DNA of 27,097 nucleotides, taken from a virus (taxonomy: Duplodnaviria; Heunggongvirae; Uroviricota; Caudoviricetes). The notes below the pieces were generated by a model. That model did not search any database and had not been told where the DNA came from. It saw only the letters and a program-made list of their open reading frames with translations. The translations under genes and the position numbers were made by a program. Shown piece by piece: positions 3,013 through 12,179 of the stretch (positions within the stretch are counted from its first letter, which is position 1; each line of letters starts with the position of its first letter). The stretch lies in the IMG/VR virus record IMGVR_UViG_3300021963_000024; one strand, written 5' to 3'.

Positions 3013-4140
3013 TTAGTGACTATCACCTACATTATGCTTTTCACTATAAATTAGATAATCTGGGTTGATAACTTTAGCTACCTTTTGTCTTTCCCCCGTA
3101 TGAATTTTAATCACAATTCCTTCTTCAGGTATTTTCGTTCCTTTGATAAAATTATTGAATGTGTATTTGTCTTGCACATCTTGCGACCATTCACCAAAAT
3201 ACAATTGTTCAACATATGGTAACTTTAGAAGTTCTTTGATAAGTAACTTTGAATTGATTGTATCTAAATACTCACCATTCTCTTTTACATCGAATCCTAC
3301 GAACTCAATCTCTTTCAATCCATAATCATATCCCTTTTGAATTCCAGCTCCGTAAATCTCACCATATAAGGTAATACCATCGCCTATGTTAGTAGGGCTG
3401 AACAATTTCACATACTCCCACAACTTCTTTTTAATATCATATTTCTTTTCAATATCATACCAAACATTAGTATCGTAGAAACCTTGTGATTCACTTCCTT
3501 TTTCCACATTGTGAGAGCCAACCACAAATTCGTAATCAATCCATCTATCTGCCACTCCAAAGAATTTCTTCACTTTATCCCACAATGATAATTTGTTTTT
3601 CTTAACAATACCATAACGAGCATTAGTTCCGTGAATCTTACGAGTGATTTCGACTGTGTCCTCTTCGGTAAACATTCCAGGTACATTCTTTAAGTTAGGG
3701 AACTTATAGTAAATGTGGAAATTCGGATTGTCTTGATAACGAATCTTTCTACCACTTGCTAATTGAACGGTCTTAACAGGTGGTTCATATTTGTAAATAT
3801 TCATTACATACATCATATCCTTACCCTCATAGTAATTTTCCATAAAAGGAATATAAGTAATTGGAATAATCAAACATTCCGAGTATACACCTCTTAATTT
3901 CACCGTCCTAACTCTACCACCTTTTCGTAAGTAATTAGTAACACTCATCTTTTCTGAAAGTTCTAAAGGAATAATAGCATCGGTTGTAGCAATCATTACT
4001 AAATCACCAACCTTTTGTTCTCCTTTTTTGGTAATACAATTCCACCCACCAACAACTGCTAATTCAATATTATCAGCACCTTCGATTGGTTTAATCTCAT
4101 TTATTGTTGCTATGTAGCAAACTGAATTTAAGTTTTCCAT
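3013..4140 (-). CDS. ATP-dependent RNA ligase, Rnl2/DRB0094 family
   Basis: N-terminal IKPIEGADNIELAVVGGW; motifs I KIHGTN, III GEIYG, IIIa FVGFDV, IV EGIVIK, V AKVIN. Confidence 0.92.
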   Translation of the reverse strand: MENLNSVCYIATINEIKPIEGADNIELAVVGGWNCITKKGEQKVGDLVMIATTDAIIPLELSEKMSVTNYLRKGGRVRTVKLRGVYSECLIIPITYIPFMENYYEGKDMMYVMNIYKYEPPVKTVQLASGRKIRYQDNPNFHIYYKFPNLKNVPGMFTEEDTVEITRKIHGTNARYGIVKKNKLSLWDKVKKFFGVADRWIDYEFVVGSHNVEKGSESQGFYDTNVWYDIEKKYDIKKKLWEYVKLFSPTNIGDGITLYGEIYGAGIQKGYDYGLKEIEFVGFDVKENGEYLDTINSKLLIKELLKLPYVEQLYFGEWSQDVQDKYTFNNFIKGTKIPEEGIVIKIHTGERQKVAKVINPDYLIYSEKHNVGDSH

Positions 4141-4141
4141 A

Positions 4142-4525
4142 TTATAACTTTACTTCAAATCTATTTTTCATTTGTTCTAATTTCTCTTCAGGTACATTGT
4201 GTATATTTTTAGAACCATGCCTATTCTCTACAATAACTGAATGAACTATATAACCCGCTTCCTTAGCCAATGTATAGTAATAATCCATTTCCCATTCTTG
4301 AGTAAATGTGTTTGATACTACAATTAGTTCTTCACCCTCATCCATCCAAGCTTCAACTACATTTTGGCACCATTCATGTGCGTATCTTAATTTAGTAGCA
4401 TCAAACTTATATTCTCCATCTTTCATAAAGAACATATCAGCCTCAATATGCATTCCACCAAATGATTTTGCCAATGAACTTTTACCACTACCTGGTAACC
4501 CTCTCAATAATATTAACTCTTTCAT
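4142..4525 (-). CDS. P-loop kinase (AAA_33, polynucleotide-kinase/N4BP2-like)
   Basis: Walker A LRGLPGSGKS, EAD, VSNTF, HNVP. Confidence 0.88.
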   Translation of the reverse strand: MKELILLRGLPGSGKSSLAKSFGGMHIEADMFFMKDGEYKFDATKLRYAHEWCQNVVEAWMDEGEELIVVSNTFTQEWEMDYYYTLAKEAGYIVHSVIVENRHGSKNIHNVPEEKLEQMKNRFEVKL

Positions 4526-5178
4526 TACTTATAATTTTCTACAATTTCGTGATGGTCAAAACTGAACATACTTTTAATTGGTTGGTTTCTCATCAAACTT
4601 AATACAGTCCTCATTTCAATTGGATACAATGCGTTACCATCACATCCTACATCCATCATCTTACCCAAACCAATTCTAGTTGCCGGCGGAAAATGAACAT
4701 GTCCGTGTAAATGAATCGCACCTCTTGCCATATTATCCCAACTTGCGATTGGAAAGTGCATTAGAGCAAATCGTTGTTCATCATTTCCAGCGTGTCCATT
4801 TGACCATTTCACATTTAAGTTTAGGTATTTGTTTACTGAACTAAAAAGTGATTGACAACCTTCTCTATCGTTTTCAATGTGATGATCGTGATTACCTGTG
4901 ATGATGTGAACATTCTTACATACGATTTGATTTCTGAATATCTCAATTTGTTCAAATCCACCAAATGACCAATCTCCCAAATGGAATAGAATATCATCTT
5001 GTCCTACAAACTCATTGATATTACCTACTAATGTTGCGTTCATATGTTCTAATGATTTAAACTCTCTACAAGTCACCGGTTCTATCCATCTAGTTGTAGC
5101 GGAACAAATGTTAGCATGGTTGTAATGCGTGTCACTTGTAAACCACAACCGCTGTCCTTTATTTAATGTTAATTTCAT
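4525..5178 (-). CDS. Calcineurin-like metallophosphoesterase
   Basis: SDTHYNH, LGDW, GNHD, MHFP, HGHVH. Confidence 0.9.
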   Translation of the reverse strand: MKLTLNKGQRLWFTSDTHYNHANICSATTRWIEPVTCREFKSLEHMNATLVGNINEFVGQDDILFHLGDWSFGGFEQIEIFRNQIVCKNVHIITGNHDHHIENDREGCQSLFSSVNKYLNLNVKWSNGHAGNDEQRFALMHFPIASWDNMARGAIHLHGHVHFPPATRIGLGKMMDVGCDGNALYPIEMRTVLSLMRNQPIKSMFSFDHHEIVENYK

Positions 5179-6408: not shown

Positions 6409-6864
6409 TTATAATTTAACTAAATGGTCAGCCGCATAAGTTGCGATTGGACCAAGTGTTTTATATCTAACTTCATATCCCATTCCTTCTACTAAACCAA
6501 CTGCTTGTCTGAACACTTCATTTGATTTGTATTTTGGGTCAGGGTTAATATCAATATCAATCCATTTCACTTTTGGTAAACCAGCTTCTCTCATTTTTTC
6601 AGCAACTTCAACCGCATACCATACTTCACTCAACAATCTTACTGAACGTGTTGGTTCTCTTTGGGTTTTCCATTTACTATAAAGAACATGTGCTCCTTTA
6701 CCTTTATGATACAAAGCTACAACGATTGCGTAAATAGTTTTATCGGAAAAGTTTTGTGAATCACAACCAATTAGTATTTCTACATTTTCTTTTCCACTTA
6801 AATACTCTCTGACATATTCAATCATGTCAATTTTTACTCCATCATATAGCCGTTTGTATTCCAT
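6409..6864 (-). CDS. RNase H-like YkuK/DUF458 family protein
   Basis: IGCDSQ, LSEV, IDIDIN, AADH acidic motifs. Confidence 0.8.
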   Translation of the reverse strand: MEYKRLYDGVKIDMIEYVREYLSGKENVEILIGCDSQNFSDKTIYAIVVALYHKGKGAHVLYSKWKTQREPTRSVRLLSEVWYAVEVAEKMREAGLPKVKWIDIDINPDPKYKSNEVFRQAVGLVEGMGYEVRYKTLGPIATYAADHLVKL

Positions 6865-7496: not shown

Positions 7497-8021
7497 TTAT
7501 CTATTTAGTTTGATGATACATTCATCAATCTTATCTCTTAATCTACCACCTACTCCAAAATCACCATCAACCTGAACATGTCTCCATTGTGGAACTTTCA
7601 TCCATTTGAATTGTTTATTCAACTGCATATCATCAATTGAAATCCAATTACTAATTTTATTATCCTTTACCCACTTTTTGATTTCAGCTGCTCTCTCCCA
7701 CTCAATTGCAGGTCTACTCAACTTCATCCATAGGTCCTGATGTGTAGTTATATCAATCAAATTGTGTCCTGCAATTCCGTAGTATTCAAATATTCTTTTC
7801 ATTTGTAAGAAACTAAAATGTTTTCTCCAATCTGAACTTAATACCATCTTTGCATTACTCTCATCCAAAATCTTTTTAAGAGCCTGACAATCTTCTTCAA
7901 CCCAAGCGTATGGTATTTTAAATGTTGATGATGAACCTAAACTCATTTCAACTCTACCATCACCCCACGTTCCCCACGCCAACGGGCCATCTACATCTAT
8001 GAATATTATCTTACGTCTCAT
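7497..8021 (-). CDS. HAD phosphatase (Swiss-Army-Knife RNA-repair HAD type)
   Basis: IFIDVDGPL, LSSDWR, ISIDD. Confidence 0.85.
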   Translation of the reverse strand: MRRKIIFIDVDGPLAWGTWGDGRVEMSLGSSSTFKIPYAWVEEDCQALKKILDESNAKMVLSSDWRKHFSFLQMKRIFEYYGIAGHNLIDITTHQDLWMKLSRPAIEWERAAEIKKWVKDNKISNWISIDDMQLNKQFKWMKVPQWRHVQVDGDFGVGGRLRDKIDECIIKLNR

Positions 8022-9246: not shown

Positions 9247-9321
9247 TGGGAAATACTGGATTCGAACCAATGACCCTCTCGGTGTAAACGAGATGCTCTA
9301 AACCAACTGAGCTAATTTCCC
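9247..9321 (-). tRNA. trnV: tRNA-Val(TAC)
   Basis: TCTCG-TTTACAC-CGAGA. Confidence 0.96.
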
Positions 9322-9325
9322 TATT

Positions 9326-9400
9326 TGGCGGGGATAAAAGGATTCGAACCTATGACCTAGTCATTAACAGTGACCCGCTCTACCGCTGAGCTATATCCCC
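9326..9400 (-). tRNA. trnN: tRNA-Asn(GTT), CCA encoded
   Basis: GGTCA-CTGTTAA-TGACT, G73-CCA. Confidence 0.96.
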
Positions 9401-9437
9401 AAAACAAAAAACCCCTAACTTTGTGAGTTAGAGGTTT
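9401..9437 (-). terminator. Intrinsic terminator (putative attenuator) abutting tRNA-Asn
   Basis: AAACCTCTAACT-CACAA-AGTTAGGGGTTT then TTTGTTTT and tRNA G1. Confidence 0.85.
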
Positions 9438-9464
9438 CAAATATTGTTCTAAAATTTTTACATT

Positions 9465-9623
9465 TTATCCTACATCAGTGTCCTCTAACATCTTGCTAAT
9501 ATAATCCACCTTGCCTAAATTAAGCGTTGCCGGATTTGATATAGCATTAAACATACTAATCCCCTGCCACTCATTTCTCAATGATTGGTTAGAACAATTT
9601 GTATGTAATGTTAAAGTTTTCAT
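9465..9623 (-). CDS. Putative 52-aa leader peptide of the tRNA-array attenuator
   Basis: MKTLTLHTNCSNQSLRNEWQGISMFNAISNPATLNLGKVDYISKMLEDTDVG after an AT-rich initiation region; contains GTTAGAGG complementary to the terminator 5' arm. Confidence 0.6.
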   Translation of the reverse strand: MKTLTLHTNCSNQSLRNEWQGISMFNAISNPATLNLGKVDYISKMLEDTDVG

Positions 9624-9739
9624 CTCTAATATATATAATATTTTTTTAAATAAAAGTAATTCGATTTCAAAATACGCCACGTCAAGTCATGCTCCGGTTA
9701 ATACTAGCCTCATCAAATTACCATTTAGCCTTTAATAAA

Positions 9740-9950
9740 GAGAGTAATAAGGGGAACGAATACTCTCAATGTAGCGGCCTACTACTTTTATTCGGTAATC
9801 ATATCGTGTTAGATTACGTTTGTTTATAGTAAAAAACTTCCCCCACAAAAACTGACAGTCTTACAACTTTTAGGTTTGATATTTAAAGTCCTAACCTACT
9901 TGTCCACTCACCTGCCAGAACAACATTGGAAAAAGACTACGAAAATCGTA
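9740..9950 (-). ncRNA. Cassette of small hairpins, unknown RNA(s)
   Basis: GAGAGTA/TACTCTC, GTAATC/GATTAC, TAGGTT/AACCTA, ATTACGA/TCGTAGT. Confidence 0.35.
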
Positions 9951-9952
9951 AT

Positions 9953-10048
9953 TGAGCGGGGCCATAGAATCGAACTACATCTTCCCCCCTGGAAGAGGGG
10001 TGTGCTAACCCGTGGGCGAACCCGCGTGGACCATTACACTAACTCCGC
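9953..10048 (-). tRNA. tRNA-Gly(TCC)-like with UUCG hairpin inserted in the D-loop
   Basis: Acceptor GCGGAGT/GCCCCGC with one A-C mismatch; CCCCT-CTTCCAG-GGGGG; D-loop AATGGT-[CCACGCGGG-TTCG-CCCACGGG]-TTA. Confidence 0.75.
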
Positions 10049-10054
10049 TTATAA

Positions 10055-10915
10055 AATGCTGAGATTACACATTTGGGAAGAACGTCCTTTAGAAAGATTA
10101 TTTTTTTCCTTTCTTATCCACACCCTTTTGAGATGTATCCGTTCAGTGTCGGTTAGTAATGCTAACCACTCATTGAGTTACTGACTACTCTCTCATTACT
10201 CTATTTCTTCTACCCTGCCGAGCAAATTCATTCTTGCGGAACTAGAAACTTTTCGTAAGAATCACAGACCACTTGCGGTGGTATCGTGGCAATGGACAAC
10301 CCATTACTATGTAGACACCTTTCGTCCGTAACTGGCAAGCACTTAAGCTTAAAATTGATTTATAGTTTGCACCTAAAGCAAATTTGAGTTTGGTTTGTAG
10401 ATTGTTCAGGTAGTGGCTTGCCAACCAGCTCCCCCATCTTTTGAACGAGAGAATACTAAACTACCCAATGTGTTATCGTCAACACCATTTTTTAAGTCAT
10501 CTTCATTAATAGGGATTGGTGTCCCACATTAAAGGTTAATAACAACACCACTTGTACATTAACATACCTTACGTCCTTTCGGATAGCTTGGTTTTAAGAC
10601 CACTTTGAAATTGAATACCGCAATGATATATAGTGATTAGCCACATACTTCTTACTGATATTCTATGGGTTATTCTTATTGTTCTTCCGAACTCAACTAG
10701 AGATTCTACATATCCCCAGTCACCCAAACCCTTCCGATATAGTGTTACCCTTTCGTACAAGGCTCAGATGATATCCCACTTGCCTACTCAAGCACCATTG
10801 CTGATGCCGCAAGAATACTAAACCAAGCATTCTCACTTTATCCTACTTTCGTAGTTTATTTAACCACCATAGGCGGCGGTTGTTTACTATGTAGGACGAG
10901 CCTACTATGTAAAAT
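10055..10915 (-). ncRNA. Giant structured RNA, probably GOLLD; ends approximate
   Basis: ~850 nt without credible ORF, GC above the flanks, many hairpins with GNRA loops (CTAC-GAAA-GTAG, GCATCA-GCAA-TGGTGC, TCC-GAAA-GGA), long-range complements; beside phage tRNAs as known for GOLLD. Confidence 0.65.
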
Positions 10916-10927
10916 ATTTTCAATCTT

Positions 10928-10937
10928 TTAAAGAACT
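10928..10937 (-). promoter_or_regulatory. boxA-like antitermination element
   Basis: AGTTCTTTAA just before the giant RNA, preceded by an ATTGGGG/CCCCGAT hairpin. Confidence 0.5.
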
Positions 10938-10994
10938 AATCGGGGAATCTTTACAACTTACATTAGTAAGAATATTTACAACCCCAATGTTTAA

Positions 10995-11026
10995 TAAATA
11001 TAGTAAAAAAAAATTAATCTACCAAA
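10995..11026 (-). promoter_or_regulatory. Bacteroidetes-type promoter for the giant RNA unit
   Basis: TTTG-N20-TATATTTA. Confidence 0.75.
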
Positions 11027-11103
11027 TTTATTTATTTTTTATTCAAAATCAACTACCCGAGTATCTTTCATCGCCTATAAGGTCATATATCATTTGAACA
11101 TTG

Positions 11104-11135
11104 TAAATATAAGGAAAGTTTTTTAAACTACCAAA
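11104..11135 (-). promoter_or_regulatory. Bacteroidetes-type promoter
   Basis: TTTG-N20-TATATTTA; near copy of 11353-11384. Confidence 0.75.
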
Positions 11136-11225
11136 TATTTTTTAAAATAAGTTATTAAGGTATCCGGCTTTATTTTTTTCACATAGTCGGTTTTATTACT
11201 ATTGGCTTCAACCTTAATTACTTTG

Positions 11226-11298
11226 TTGCGGGGGATGGATTCGAACCACCGACCTTTAGGTTATGAGCCTAACGAGCTACCGCTGCTACTACCCCACG
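11226..11298 (-). tRNA. trnM: Initiator tRNA-fMet(CAT)
   Basis: C1-A72 mismatch; TTAGG-CTCATAA-CCTAA (two rather than three G-C pairs). Confidence 0.9.
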
Positions 11299-11352
11299 AT
11301 ATAATAATATAAATAAAGAACTAAACTAAATATGTTTTTCACATTTGAATAT

Positions 11353-11384
11353 CAAATATACGAAAAGTTTTTTAAACTACCAAA
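11353..11384 (-). promoter_or_regulatory. Consensus Bacteroidetes promoter for tRNA-fMet
   Basis: TTTG-N20-TATATTTG; AGTTCTTT at 11315-11322 downstream. Confidence 0.85.
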
Positions 11385-11497
11385 TATTTTTTAAAAAATG
11401 TGGATAACTTTCTTAAGTCATTGAAAATCAATAAGTTATAACTCATTGATAATCAACGCCTTATTGACAATCAATACTTTACATATTAGCGTTTTTG

Positions 11498-11867
11498 TGG
11501 AGATGACGGGAGTCGAACCCGTGTCTTACCGAGTAATCATAATACCAACGTCTCACAAGTTTATTCAGTTATTCACAACTGACAAATATATGAGTTTTTA
11601 CATTTTATCATAATCAATGTTTTGACTCGATTTTGGGTTCAGTCAATTTTCCACCTTTATAGATACTTCTGTTCCTAGGTTATATGTATTCCGACCCGAG
11701 TAGGATTAGGCTGCTACAGCGTAATCCATACCTACGAATGCCATAAGGTCATCGTAAGTCATTGTTGACTTTTCGTCATTTATTGTTTCGATACGATATT
11801 AAGAGATAGTATCATTTCTCTACTTGTGATATTATCATTCGCATGGCAATCAATACCAAACATCCCC
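11498..11867 (-). ncRNA. ssrA: tmRNA; predicted tag (A)DEKSTMTYDDLMAFVGMDYAVAA at 11706-11777
   Basis: 5' GGGGATG pairs with 3' CATCTCC-A (G3:U70); T-arm GGTTCGACTCC; resume context ATAAAT-GAC; tag ends in AA-stop. Confidence 0.95.
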
Positions 11868-11908
11868 ATATTTTAAAGAACTAAAATCAGTATTACCGAT
11901 TTGAATAT

Positions 11909-11940
11909 CAAATATACGAAGAATTTTTGAAATCGCCAAA
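11909..11940 (-). promoter_or_regulatory. Consensus Bacteroidetes promoter for tmRNA
   Basis: TTTG-N20-TATATTTG; AGTTCTTTAA at 11873-11882 downstream. Confidence 0.85.
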
Positions 11941-11999
11941 TTTATTTATAACTCATTGATTATCAACAAATTATAAATAGAATAAATTTAGATGTGAAA

Positions 12000-12179
12000 T
12001 TATTCAGCCGTTAAAGGAACACGAATATATTTTGCAGTATCGCCTGACTCATTCGGTTCTTCGAAATATTCTTGATTTTCATTCAACCATGCAGTAGCTT
12101 GTTCATCTGTCATAGATTCGCAACCTTCTACAGGAGTTTCATTTCCAGAAAATGTTATTTTGTATAATATTTCTTCCAT
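12000..12179 (-). CDS. Small acidic hypothetical protein (59 aa, not in ORF track)
   Basis: MEEILYKITFSGNETPVEGCESMTDEQATAWLNENQEYFEEPNESGDTAKYIRVPLTAE; TATATTTATA upstream. Confidence 0.65.
   Translation of the reverse strand: MEEILYKITFSGNETPVEGCESMTDEQATAWLNENQEYFEEPNESGDTAKYIRVPLTAE

Follow-up and report, generated by a model that had tools for sequence, protein, structure and literature searches.

A GOLLD RNA, most probably of the env-38 type, in the tRNA island of an uncultured lake phage

The window analysed here, a stretch of 27,097 nucleotides, carries on its minus strand, from 10881 to 10056, what is very probably a complete GOLLD RNA of the env-38 type, encoded by a 238-kb uncultured lake phage with a probably Flavobacteriia-like host. 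The molecule is a further member of a known family, belonging to a subtype with a solved structure, and does not represent a new kind of molecule. To our knowledge, GOLLD RNAs are among the largest non-coding RNAs of bacteria and phages, and their function is still unknown 17 years after their discovery. In 2009, Weinberg et al. reportedly found them in a Lake Gatun metagenome, in Lactobacillales prophages and in mycobacteriophages.

Identity and extent of the RNA

The scan of the entire window against Rfam 15 returned GOLLD as the sole strong match other than tRNAs. The RF02032 model aligned end to end (positions 1-416 of 416) with 10468-10056 on the minus strand, scoring 278.6 bits against a gathering score of 150 (E = 8e-79). 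A preliminary description of this DNA had read the region as GOLLD, to be checked with the GOLLD, ROOL and OLE models, and had kept a new giant RNA as a fallback. A permissive rescan of 9380-11500 recovered the GOLLD match again, with neither ROOL, OLE nor any other large-RNA family at E <= 1, and rescanning the full 238,219-bp virus record that holds the window yielded a single GOLLD copy. The RNA belongs to the GOLLD family, as documented by the covariance-model match, by covariation in both domains and by the match of its 5' domain to the env-38 construct; the first two of these exclude the fallback. The RNA is read from high to low coordinates, as every RNA gene annotated in this region is on the minus strand.

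Of the whole RNA, RF02032 spans just the 3' domain, the linker and, from the 5' half, the final hairpin. In the window, the 3' domain, delimited by the cmscan alignment with model positions 1-416 (10056..10468, minus strand), includes the first hairpin of the RF02032 region (10468 to ~10405) and an A/U-rich variable linker (~10404-10333). The 5' domain (10469..10881, minus strand; 413 nt), recognised by its pairing and by an env-38 order of motifs, is of the type that makes the "cap" of the env-38 cage. The conserved folded core, supported by Rfam for its 3' half, by nhmmer and by RNAalifold, is assigned 826 nt (10056..10881, minus strand) because nhmmer homology runs from 10881 to ~10056. The span put forward earlier, 10055-10990, does hold a structured RNA, on the minus strand, but its core occupies only 10881-10056, and the homology limits leave 10882 to ~10990 as a leader outside it.

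As a single sequence, the region folds with a z-score of -4.4 and beats 20 of 20 shuffles. That it could be a giant RNA of another family, or that it codes for protein, is extremely improbable: short mechanical ORFs of 60-102 aa, and only such ORFs, overlap it, but there is no coding signal, the longest in the sense direction (10760..10569) being open in just 1 of 48 relatives, and the GOLLD model matches at E = 8e-79.

Homologues and conserved base pairing

The DNA search of public phages found no cultured relative of the phage, returning an uncultured 635-kb phage that matches 79% of the query, its 5' part included, and Acinetobacter phages in which BLAST matched the 3' domain alone. A 20-base pattern, GGAAGNNCAATAAGAATAAC, taken from a strand conserved between the window and the 635-kb phage, recovered 115 loci when searched in IMG/VR contigs. 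With nhmmer, nearly all of the 115 align from about position 130 to about 957 of the query, that is, from 10881 to ~10056 of the window, and in closer relatives the leader aligns as well.

Alignment A2 comprises 48 non-redundant sequences with less than 92% mutual identity. RNAalifold predicted 186 pairs in it, 147 of which keep pairing via changes on both sides. In the 5' domain (10881-10469), 96.8% of the cells at 100 pairs are paired and 80 pairs are compensated; the corresponding values for the 3' domain are 96.3%, 83 and 67. Sliding the 3' partner by 1-3 columns as a control left 37-45% of cells paired and 30-40 pairs compensated in the 5' domain, and 23-41 pairs compensated in the 3' domain, a contrast that is inflated because the pairs were predicted from the very alignment on which they were scored, though the margin is nonetheless large. 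A long-range pseudoknot within the 3' domain also covaries (A2 columns 707-716 with 876-895). Both GOLLD domains are under selection for base pairing.

These data bear on whether the copy might be a decayed, non-functional relic of GOLLD, which we regard as very unlikely. No specific point favours decay, whereas the Rfam match is full-length, every helix is intact, the closest relatives maintain their pairs by compensatory change, and the sequence occurs in RNA libraries.

The six local helices listed in the preliminary description all fall within a helix predicted from A2 (n = 48) or present in the Rfam model. Compensatory changes are clear for AACCGCC/GGTGGTT, AGAATGCT/AGTATTCT, GCATCA-GCAA-TGGTGC, CTAC-GAAA-GTAG and AGAAAG/CTTTCT, and sparser for GGTTAG/CTAACC (10 of 48 sequences at most, at its best pair), which matches a helix of the Rfam model. 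The first hairpin, AACCGCC...GGTGGTT (10862..10881, minus strand), has a covarying core of five pairs, with CG, GC or UA at one pair and GC or CG at the next. In the CTAC-GAAA-GTAG hairpin (10843..10854, minus strand), the GAAA loop is invariant across A2 (48/48).

The three long-range complements proposed in the same description are present as strings but unsupported as pairs. Two were rejected because both of their sides sit in covarying helices: in AACCCAT/ATGGGTT, the former pairs locally with GTGGGATAT and the latter is an arm of a 3'-domain hairpin, while both sides of GTTGAGTT/AACTCAAT use bases of other helices, AACTCAAT being part of the covarying pseudoknot, where column 893 changes together with 709 and not with 272. 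The third, ATGTAGA/TCTACAT, is 50-96% compatible per position, lacks clean covariation and is broken in 11 of 48 sequences at one position; inspection by eye of the env-38 sequence found no counterpart.

Relationship to env-38 and other large RNAs

The env-38 RNA (JCVI_SCAF_1096627009515/1239-410) was resolved by cryo-EM as a 14-mer cage (Kretsch et al. 2025, PMC12286853). The closed 14-mer has D7 symmetry, its caps being formed by the 5' domains and its rings by the 3' domains (PMC12286853). The construct sequence, taken from the supplement of that paper, was compared with the window by eye. It contains the GGAAGNNCAATAAGAATAAC search pattern and shows the same succession of motifs as the window, namely AAATAAA..ACGAAAGTAGGATAAAGTG, TGCGG, GAGTAGGCAAGTGAGATATC, GAGGGTAACAC and GTTGAGTTCGGAAGAGCAATAAGAATAACTCATAGAAT; because these 5'-domain motifs match in order, the window RNA is assigned to the env-38 type. 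The construct likewise starts with a hairpin equivalent to 10881-10862, and the two RNAs further share a two-domain layout, a similar length (826 nt in the window, 833 nt in env-38), GAAA hairpins, the ...CAATAAGAATAAC... strand and a tRNA-Met gene just upstream. They differ in the sequences of the variable stems and of the linker. The window copy, for its part, belongs to a freshwater 238-kb phage and has a defined promoter, a boxA-like leader and a tRNA-Gly-like element behind it.

Two smaller features invite a comparison with the solved structure. An extra GAAA-capped hairpin (10570..10586, minus strand; A2 columns 381-400) is restricted to the clade of the window, and env-38 has a GAAA-capped hairpin at the same position. 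We take it to be loop L11a of env-38, the stem numbering being our own reading. The second is a hairpin loop at 10213..10222 (minus strand) with a self-complementary GC dinucleotide: it reads GGCA in 42, GCGA in 4 and CGCA in 2 of the 48 sequences of A2, so that the middle dinucleotide is GC or CG in all 48. Alternation of the inner dinucleotide between GC and CG is the signature of an inter-subunit contact, the L21a kissing loop of bridge B8 (PMC12286853). From this behaviour we infer that the loop is L21a, again in our own numbering.

By homology with env-38, to which it is some 70-80% alike as judged by eye, the window RNA would probably self-assemble into a closed cage of 14 copies.

With regard to the GOLLD family as a whole (RF02032), the window copy shares the conserved 3' domain with its pseudoknot and the location in a phage beside tRNAs. 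The difference concerns the 5' half, which the literature terms variable and where the RF02032 model stops at the linker, whereas a single 5'-domain type is common to all 115 IMG/VR loci. ROOL similarly is large, occurs in phages close to tRNAs and assembles into a cage made solely of RNA. ROOL and OLE have a different fold, and neither Rfam model matched, as noted above.

Genomic context and host

ARAGORN and Rfam identified 26 tRNAs and a tmRNA in the window, all on the same strand. In the sense of the RNA, the order is tmRNA (11867-11495), tRNA-Met (11298-11225), GOLLD, a 650-nt spacer and a tRNA array starting at 9400; GOLLD is hence flanked by tRNA-Met upstream and 25 tRNAs downstream, and its relatives likewise lie beside tRNAs. 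The upstream neighbour, tRNA-Met(CAT) (11225..11298, minus strand), carries a C1-A72 mismatch and is of the initiator type, a mismatch at pair 1-72 being the hallmark of bacterial initiator tRNAs. Most loci have a tRNA-Met(CAT) either 130-500 nt upstream or 6-22 nt downstream of GOLLD, and it is often the only tRNA beside GOLLD on the locus examined (loci L004-L118). Among 36 distinct sequences of GOLLD-linked tRNA-Met, 23 have the 1-72 mismatch and six have G-C there.

The phage tmRNA (11495-11867, minus strand) encodes, according to ARAGORN, an unusually long tag peptide of 23 residues ending in AVAA; in the central part of the tmRNA, the posterior quality of the Rfam alignment is low.

The protein-coding neighbours include an RNA ligase, a P-loop kinase (AAA_33), metallophosphoesterases, an RNA-repair HAD domain and an RNase H-like protein, and this set forms a heal-and-seal tRNA repair kit. 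GOLLD thus stands in a translation-support and RNA-repair island. The repair genes are found at 3013-5178, 6409-6864 and 7497-8021 (minus strand), interleaved with the tRNA array. Against cultured phages, the RNA ligase reaches at most 31% identity.

The Bacteroidota host proposed in the preliminary description receives indirect support from promoters of the -33 TTG / -7 TAnnTTTG type and from a leader motif like that before Flavobacteriaceae 16S genes, both described below. The scan of MAG and genome contigs with the 5'-domain pattern is uninformative on the host, because about 17 of its 23 matches are expected by chance (18 fixed bases, 596 Gb) and only one is a genuine GOLLD, located on a 1.6-kb contig (L127) within a Cyanobium MAG.

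Promoter and leader

Upstream of the leader lies a promoter-like site (10995..11025, minus strand) composed of TTG, 20 nt and TATATTTA, which fits what we take to be the Bacteroidota type (-33 TTG / -7 TAnnTTTG). As a motif, the promoter that the preliminary description had assigned to the RNA is real: TTGG..N..TATATTTR has six copies on this strand, where 0 are expected, one of them at 11025-10995, and the copies precede the tmRNA, tRNA-Met, GOLLD and two protein genes. A looser version gives 15 sites against 3.7 in shuffles. Transcription would start near 10990 from this host-type promoter. An extra copy of the motif (11104-11134, minus strand) separates tRNA-Met from the GOLLD promoter; no obvious gene follows it before the next promoter.

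The leader contains a GGGG...CCCC hairpin read from the sequence (10940..10987, minus strand), directly followed by the boxA-like motif AGTTCTTTAAA (10927..10937, minus strand). The closest relative, L026, has a shorter leader hairpin, and a stable hairpin occupies the equivalent place, a few bases before the motif, in 22 of 56 leaders. The boxA-like site had also been noticed previously, and both counts and conservation uphold it. AGTTCTTTAAA occurs in two copies against 0.09 expected, the second of them before the tmRNA (11872-11882, minus strand), where a promoter of the same type lies at 11909-11939 (minus strand); in the whole 238-kb phage, the succession of promoter and AGTTCTTTAAA is found at GOLLD and the tmRNA only. 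Of 72 distinct flanks from relatives, 68 carry GTTCTTT in the 160 nt preceding the core, compared with 7 of 69 for a control region; the consensus of the motif is GTTCTTTGAAAATATT.

The motif resembles sequences in front of rRNA genes. The test on 81 sampled Flavobacteriaceae genomes counted GTTCWTTRR matches 120-150 nt before the 16S gene: 18 of the 81 have there a near-identical string, GTTCATTGAAAATATTGA, GTTCATTAACATATTGAA or similar, and the reversed motif gave 0 matches in the same genomes. The Flavobacteriaceae form is GTTCATTRA..ATATTGA, and some phage leaders differ from such strings by a single base. rRNA boxA elements lie approximately where these strings sit, before the 16S gene, and from this position and general knowledge we take the Flavobacteriaceae motif to be boxA. 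A sequence like the boxA of a host-type rRNA leader is thus placed between promoter and structured RNA. Close to the GOLLD leader string, too, is GTTCTTTGAAAA, a conserved site of mollicute rRNA spacers that serves as a universal mycoplasma primer. A literature search on GOLLD and boxA returned nothing relevant.

We interpret the GOLLD leader motif as copied from the rRNA boxA of the host and as a candidate Nus site. Like the rrn and nut boxA of E. coli and lambda, it is a short U-rich motif after a promoter, often following a small hairpin, and like rrn boxA it stands ahead of a long structured non-coding RNA; the difference is that this RNA is a phage non-coding RNA and not rRNA, and that the Nus role is putative. 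Together with the hairpin, the motif might recruit the host Nus antitermination complex and so help RNA polymerase to complete and fold a long structured RNA, a proposal that we hold to be close to an even call.

Only slightly less probable is that GTTCTTT constitutes another kind of signal, for instance a site where an RNase trims the 5' end, a site for a phage protein or a promoter-proximal element. Such a role would suit the position of the motif very near the -7 box in many relatives and its absence from the one Acinetobacter-phage GOLLD locus inspected, binding of Nus factors to GTTCTTT being itself putative; it would account less readily for the presence of GTTCATTGAAAATATTGA/GTTCATTAACATATTGAA 120-150 nt before 16S in 18 of 81 Flavobacteriaceae against none in the reversed control, or for the identical motif before the phage tmRNA.

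Presence in RNA libraries

Twenty public runs of lake, river, estuary and marine water contain sampled words from the stretch, and six of these runs are recorded as RNA libraries. Contigs of four RNA libraries from different studies (three lake runs and one river run) lie along 10045-10880, and one contig bridges 9964-10292, from the 3' end of GOLLD into the tRNA-like element. The GOLLD sequence is present in RNA libraries; as these may carry DNA, the contigs indicate presence in the library rather than transcription, strand, starts or ends. The contig edge at 10871-10880 reflects relatives and not the 5' end of the RNA, because the contigs continue as unlike sequence. The four RNA runs cover the bins 10929-11201 and 9382-9654 hardly or not at all, an absence that is not evidential.

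The 3' end and downstream transcription

A tRNA-Gly(UCC)-like element (9953..10048, minus strand) starts 7 nt after the 3' end of GOLLD and is a probable RNase P handle. A 26-nt hairpin with a UUCG loop (10033-10008) is inserted in its D-loop. Intact, the element (10048-9953) was called neither by ARAGORN nor by the Rfam tRNA model, but after in silico removal of the insert ARAGORN recognises it as tRNA-Gly(tcc), and the homologue in L026 is called as a tRNA unmodified. The element represents a second tRNA-Gly(UCC) gene at 9953-10048.

Among 65 distinct flanks, 25 have a tRNA that starts within 30 nt of the GOLLD 3' end, 19 of these being tRNA-Met. In at least nine others a T-loop-like motif is found no more than 110 nt away, in most cases as part of a tRNA-like element or an acceptor/T-arm minihelix. 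Other insert-bearing tRNAs occupy the same place in L115, L002 and L060, and an acceptor/T-arm minihelix does so in L075, L054 and L110. Processing of the tRNA type is not universal, since about 18 of the 65 relatives have an ordinary intrinsic terminator right after GOLLD.

From the tRNA-Gly-like element, and from the tRNAs and tRNA-like elements behind GOLLD in relatives, we infer that RNase P cleavage is the likeliest mode of 3'-end formation in the window. Transcription, meeting no terminator behind GOLLD, would continue into the element, and RNase P would cut at its 5' end and thereby set the 3' end of GOLLD; we rather favour this course of events. The arrangement recalls MALAT1-mascRNA and the t-elements of plant mitochondria, where a tRNA-shaped element behind a long non-coding RNA lets RNase P define the 3' end. 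The parallel is one of analogy: the window element derives from a tRNA-Gly with an insert in its D-loop, and in GOLLD relatives its place may be taken by a genuine tRNA, a minihelix or simply a terminator.

The preliminary description had GOLLD heading the tRNA operon, co-transcribed with an attenuator and the tRNAs. The consensus scan of 9300-12100 shows the "attenuator" (9408..9438, minus strand) to be the sole terminator-like hairpin between GOLLD and the tRNA array, with no such site between 10056 and this hairpin, and no promoter of the phage's own type occurs between 10995 and the next copy at 6402-6372. Alternatively, GOLLD might be a self-contained transcription unit, most of its transcripts ending or being cut at the tRNA-like element while the array is fed from elsewhere, in which case GOLLD would not functionally head the tRNA operon. 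The terminators directly behind GOLLD in about 18 of 65 relatives agree with such a unit, as does the strength of the terminator-like hairpin at 9438-9408, ahead of the first tRNA. We nevertheless consider it rather unlikely, as the stretch from 10056 to 9438 is free of terminator-like sites in the window, that from 10995 to 6402 is free of own-type promoters, and an RNA-library contig crosses the 3' end of GOLLD. Co-transcription of GOLLD with the downstream attenuator and tRNAs is therefore the preferred reading, polymerase presumably proceeding toward both after passing the tRNA-like element.

The non-coding spacer at 9640-9950 (minus strand), between the tRNA-like element and a leader ORF, is conserved in the eight closest loci only. 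An RNA-library contig lies at 9689-9915 and Rfam gave no match; the spacer could represent an additional small RNA or else a long 5' untranslated region.

Possible function

What GOLLD does is not known from the literature (PMC12286853). In infection, the RNA would form part of the phage translation-support kit, and the cage may hold or shield either ribosomes or tRNAs, the initiator tRNA in particular, while the phage takes over the cell or when host defences cut RNA. This action on tRNAs or ribosomes in translation takeover is our best guess, drawn from genomic company alone, and should be regarded as more doubtful than the assembly and processing steps proposed above.

Three features of the comparison set may be new, namely, the GTTCTTT leader motif in 68 of 72 flanks and its resemblance to the Flavobacteriaceae 16S leader, the tRNA or tRNA-like element abutting the 3' end in more than half of the loci, and the mostly initiator type of the linked tRNA-Met. 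The 115 loci place GOLLD firmly within phage translation-takeover islands and, through the leader motif, the tRNA-punctuated 3' ends and the link to initiator tRNA-Met, offer testable handles on how GOLLD is made. Tentatively, and with more doubt than confidence, we suggest that the env-38-type GOLLD genes in phages of Bacteroidota-like hosts are built as miniature rRNA operons, comprising a host-type promoter, a hairpin with a boxA copy, a tRNA or crippled tRNA serving as RNase P handle and a closely linked initiator-type tRNA-Met. If true, such a build would link production of the cage RNA, and perhaps also its task, with translation initiation, and the boxA-copy leader would recruit a Nus antitermination and RNA-chaperone complex.

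A cultured phage, Acinetobacter phage vB_AciJM_313 (L003), holds a GOLLD at 960-1750, in an unannotated gap of its tRNA array. Judged by eye at this one Acinetobacter phage locus, the 5' domain shares env-38-type motifs, and the phage could serve as a tractable laboratory system for GOLLD.
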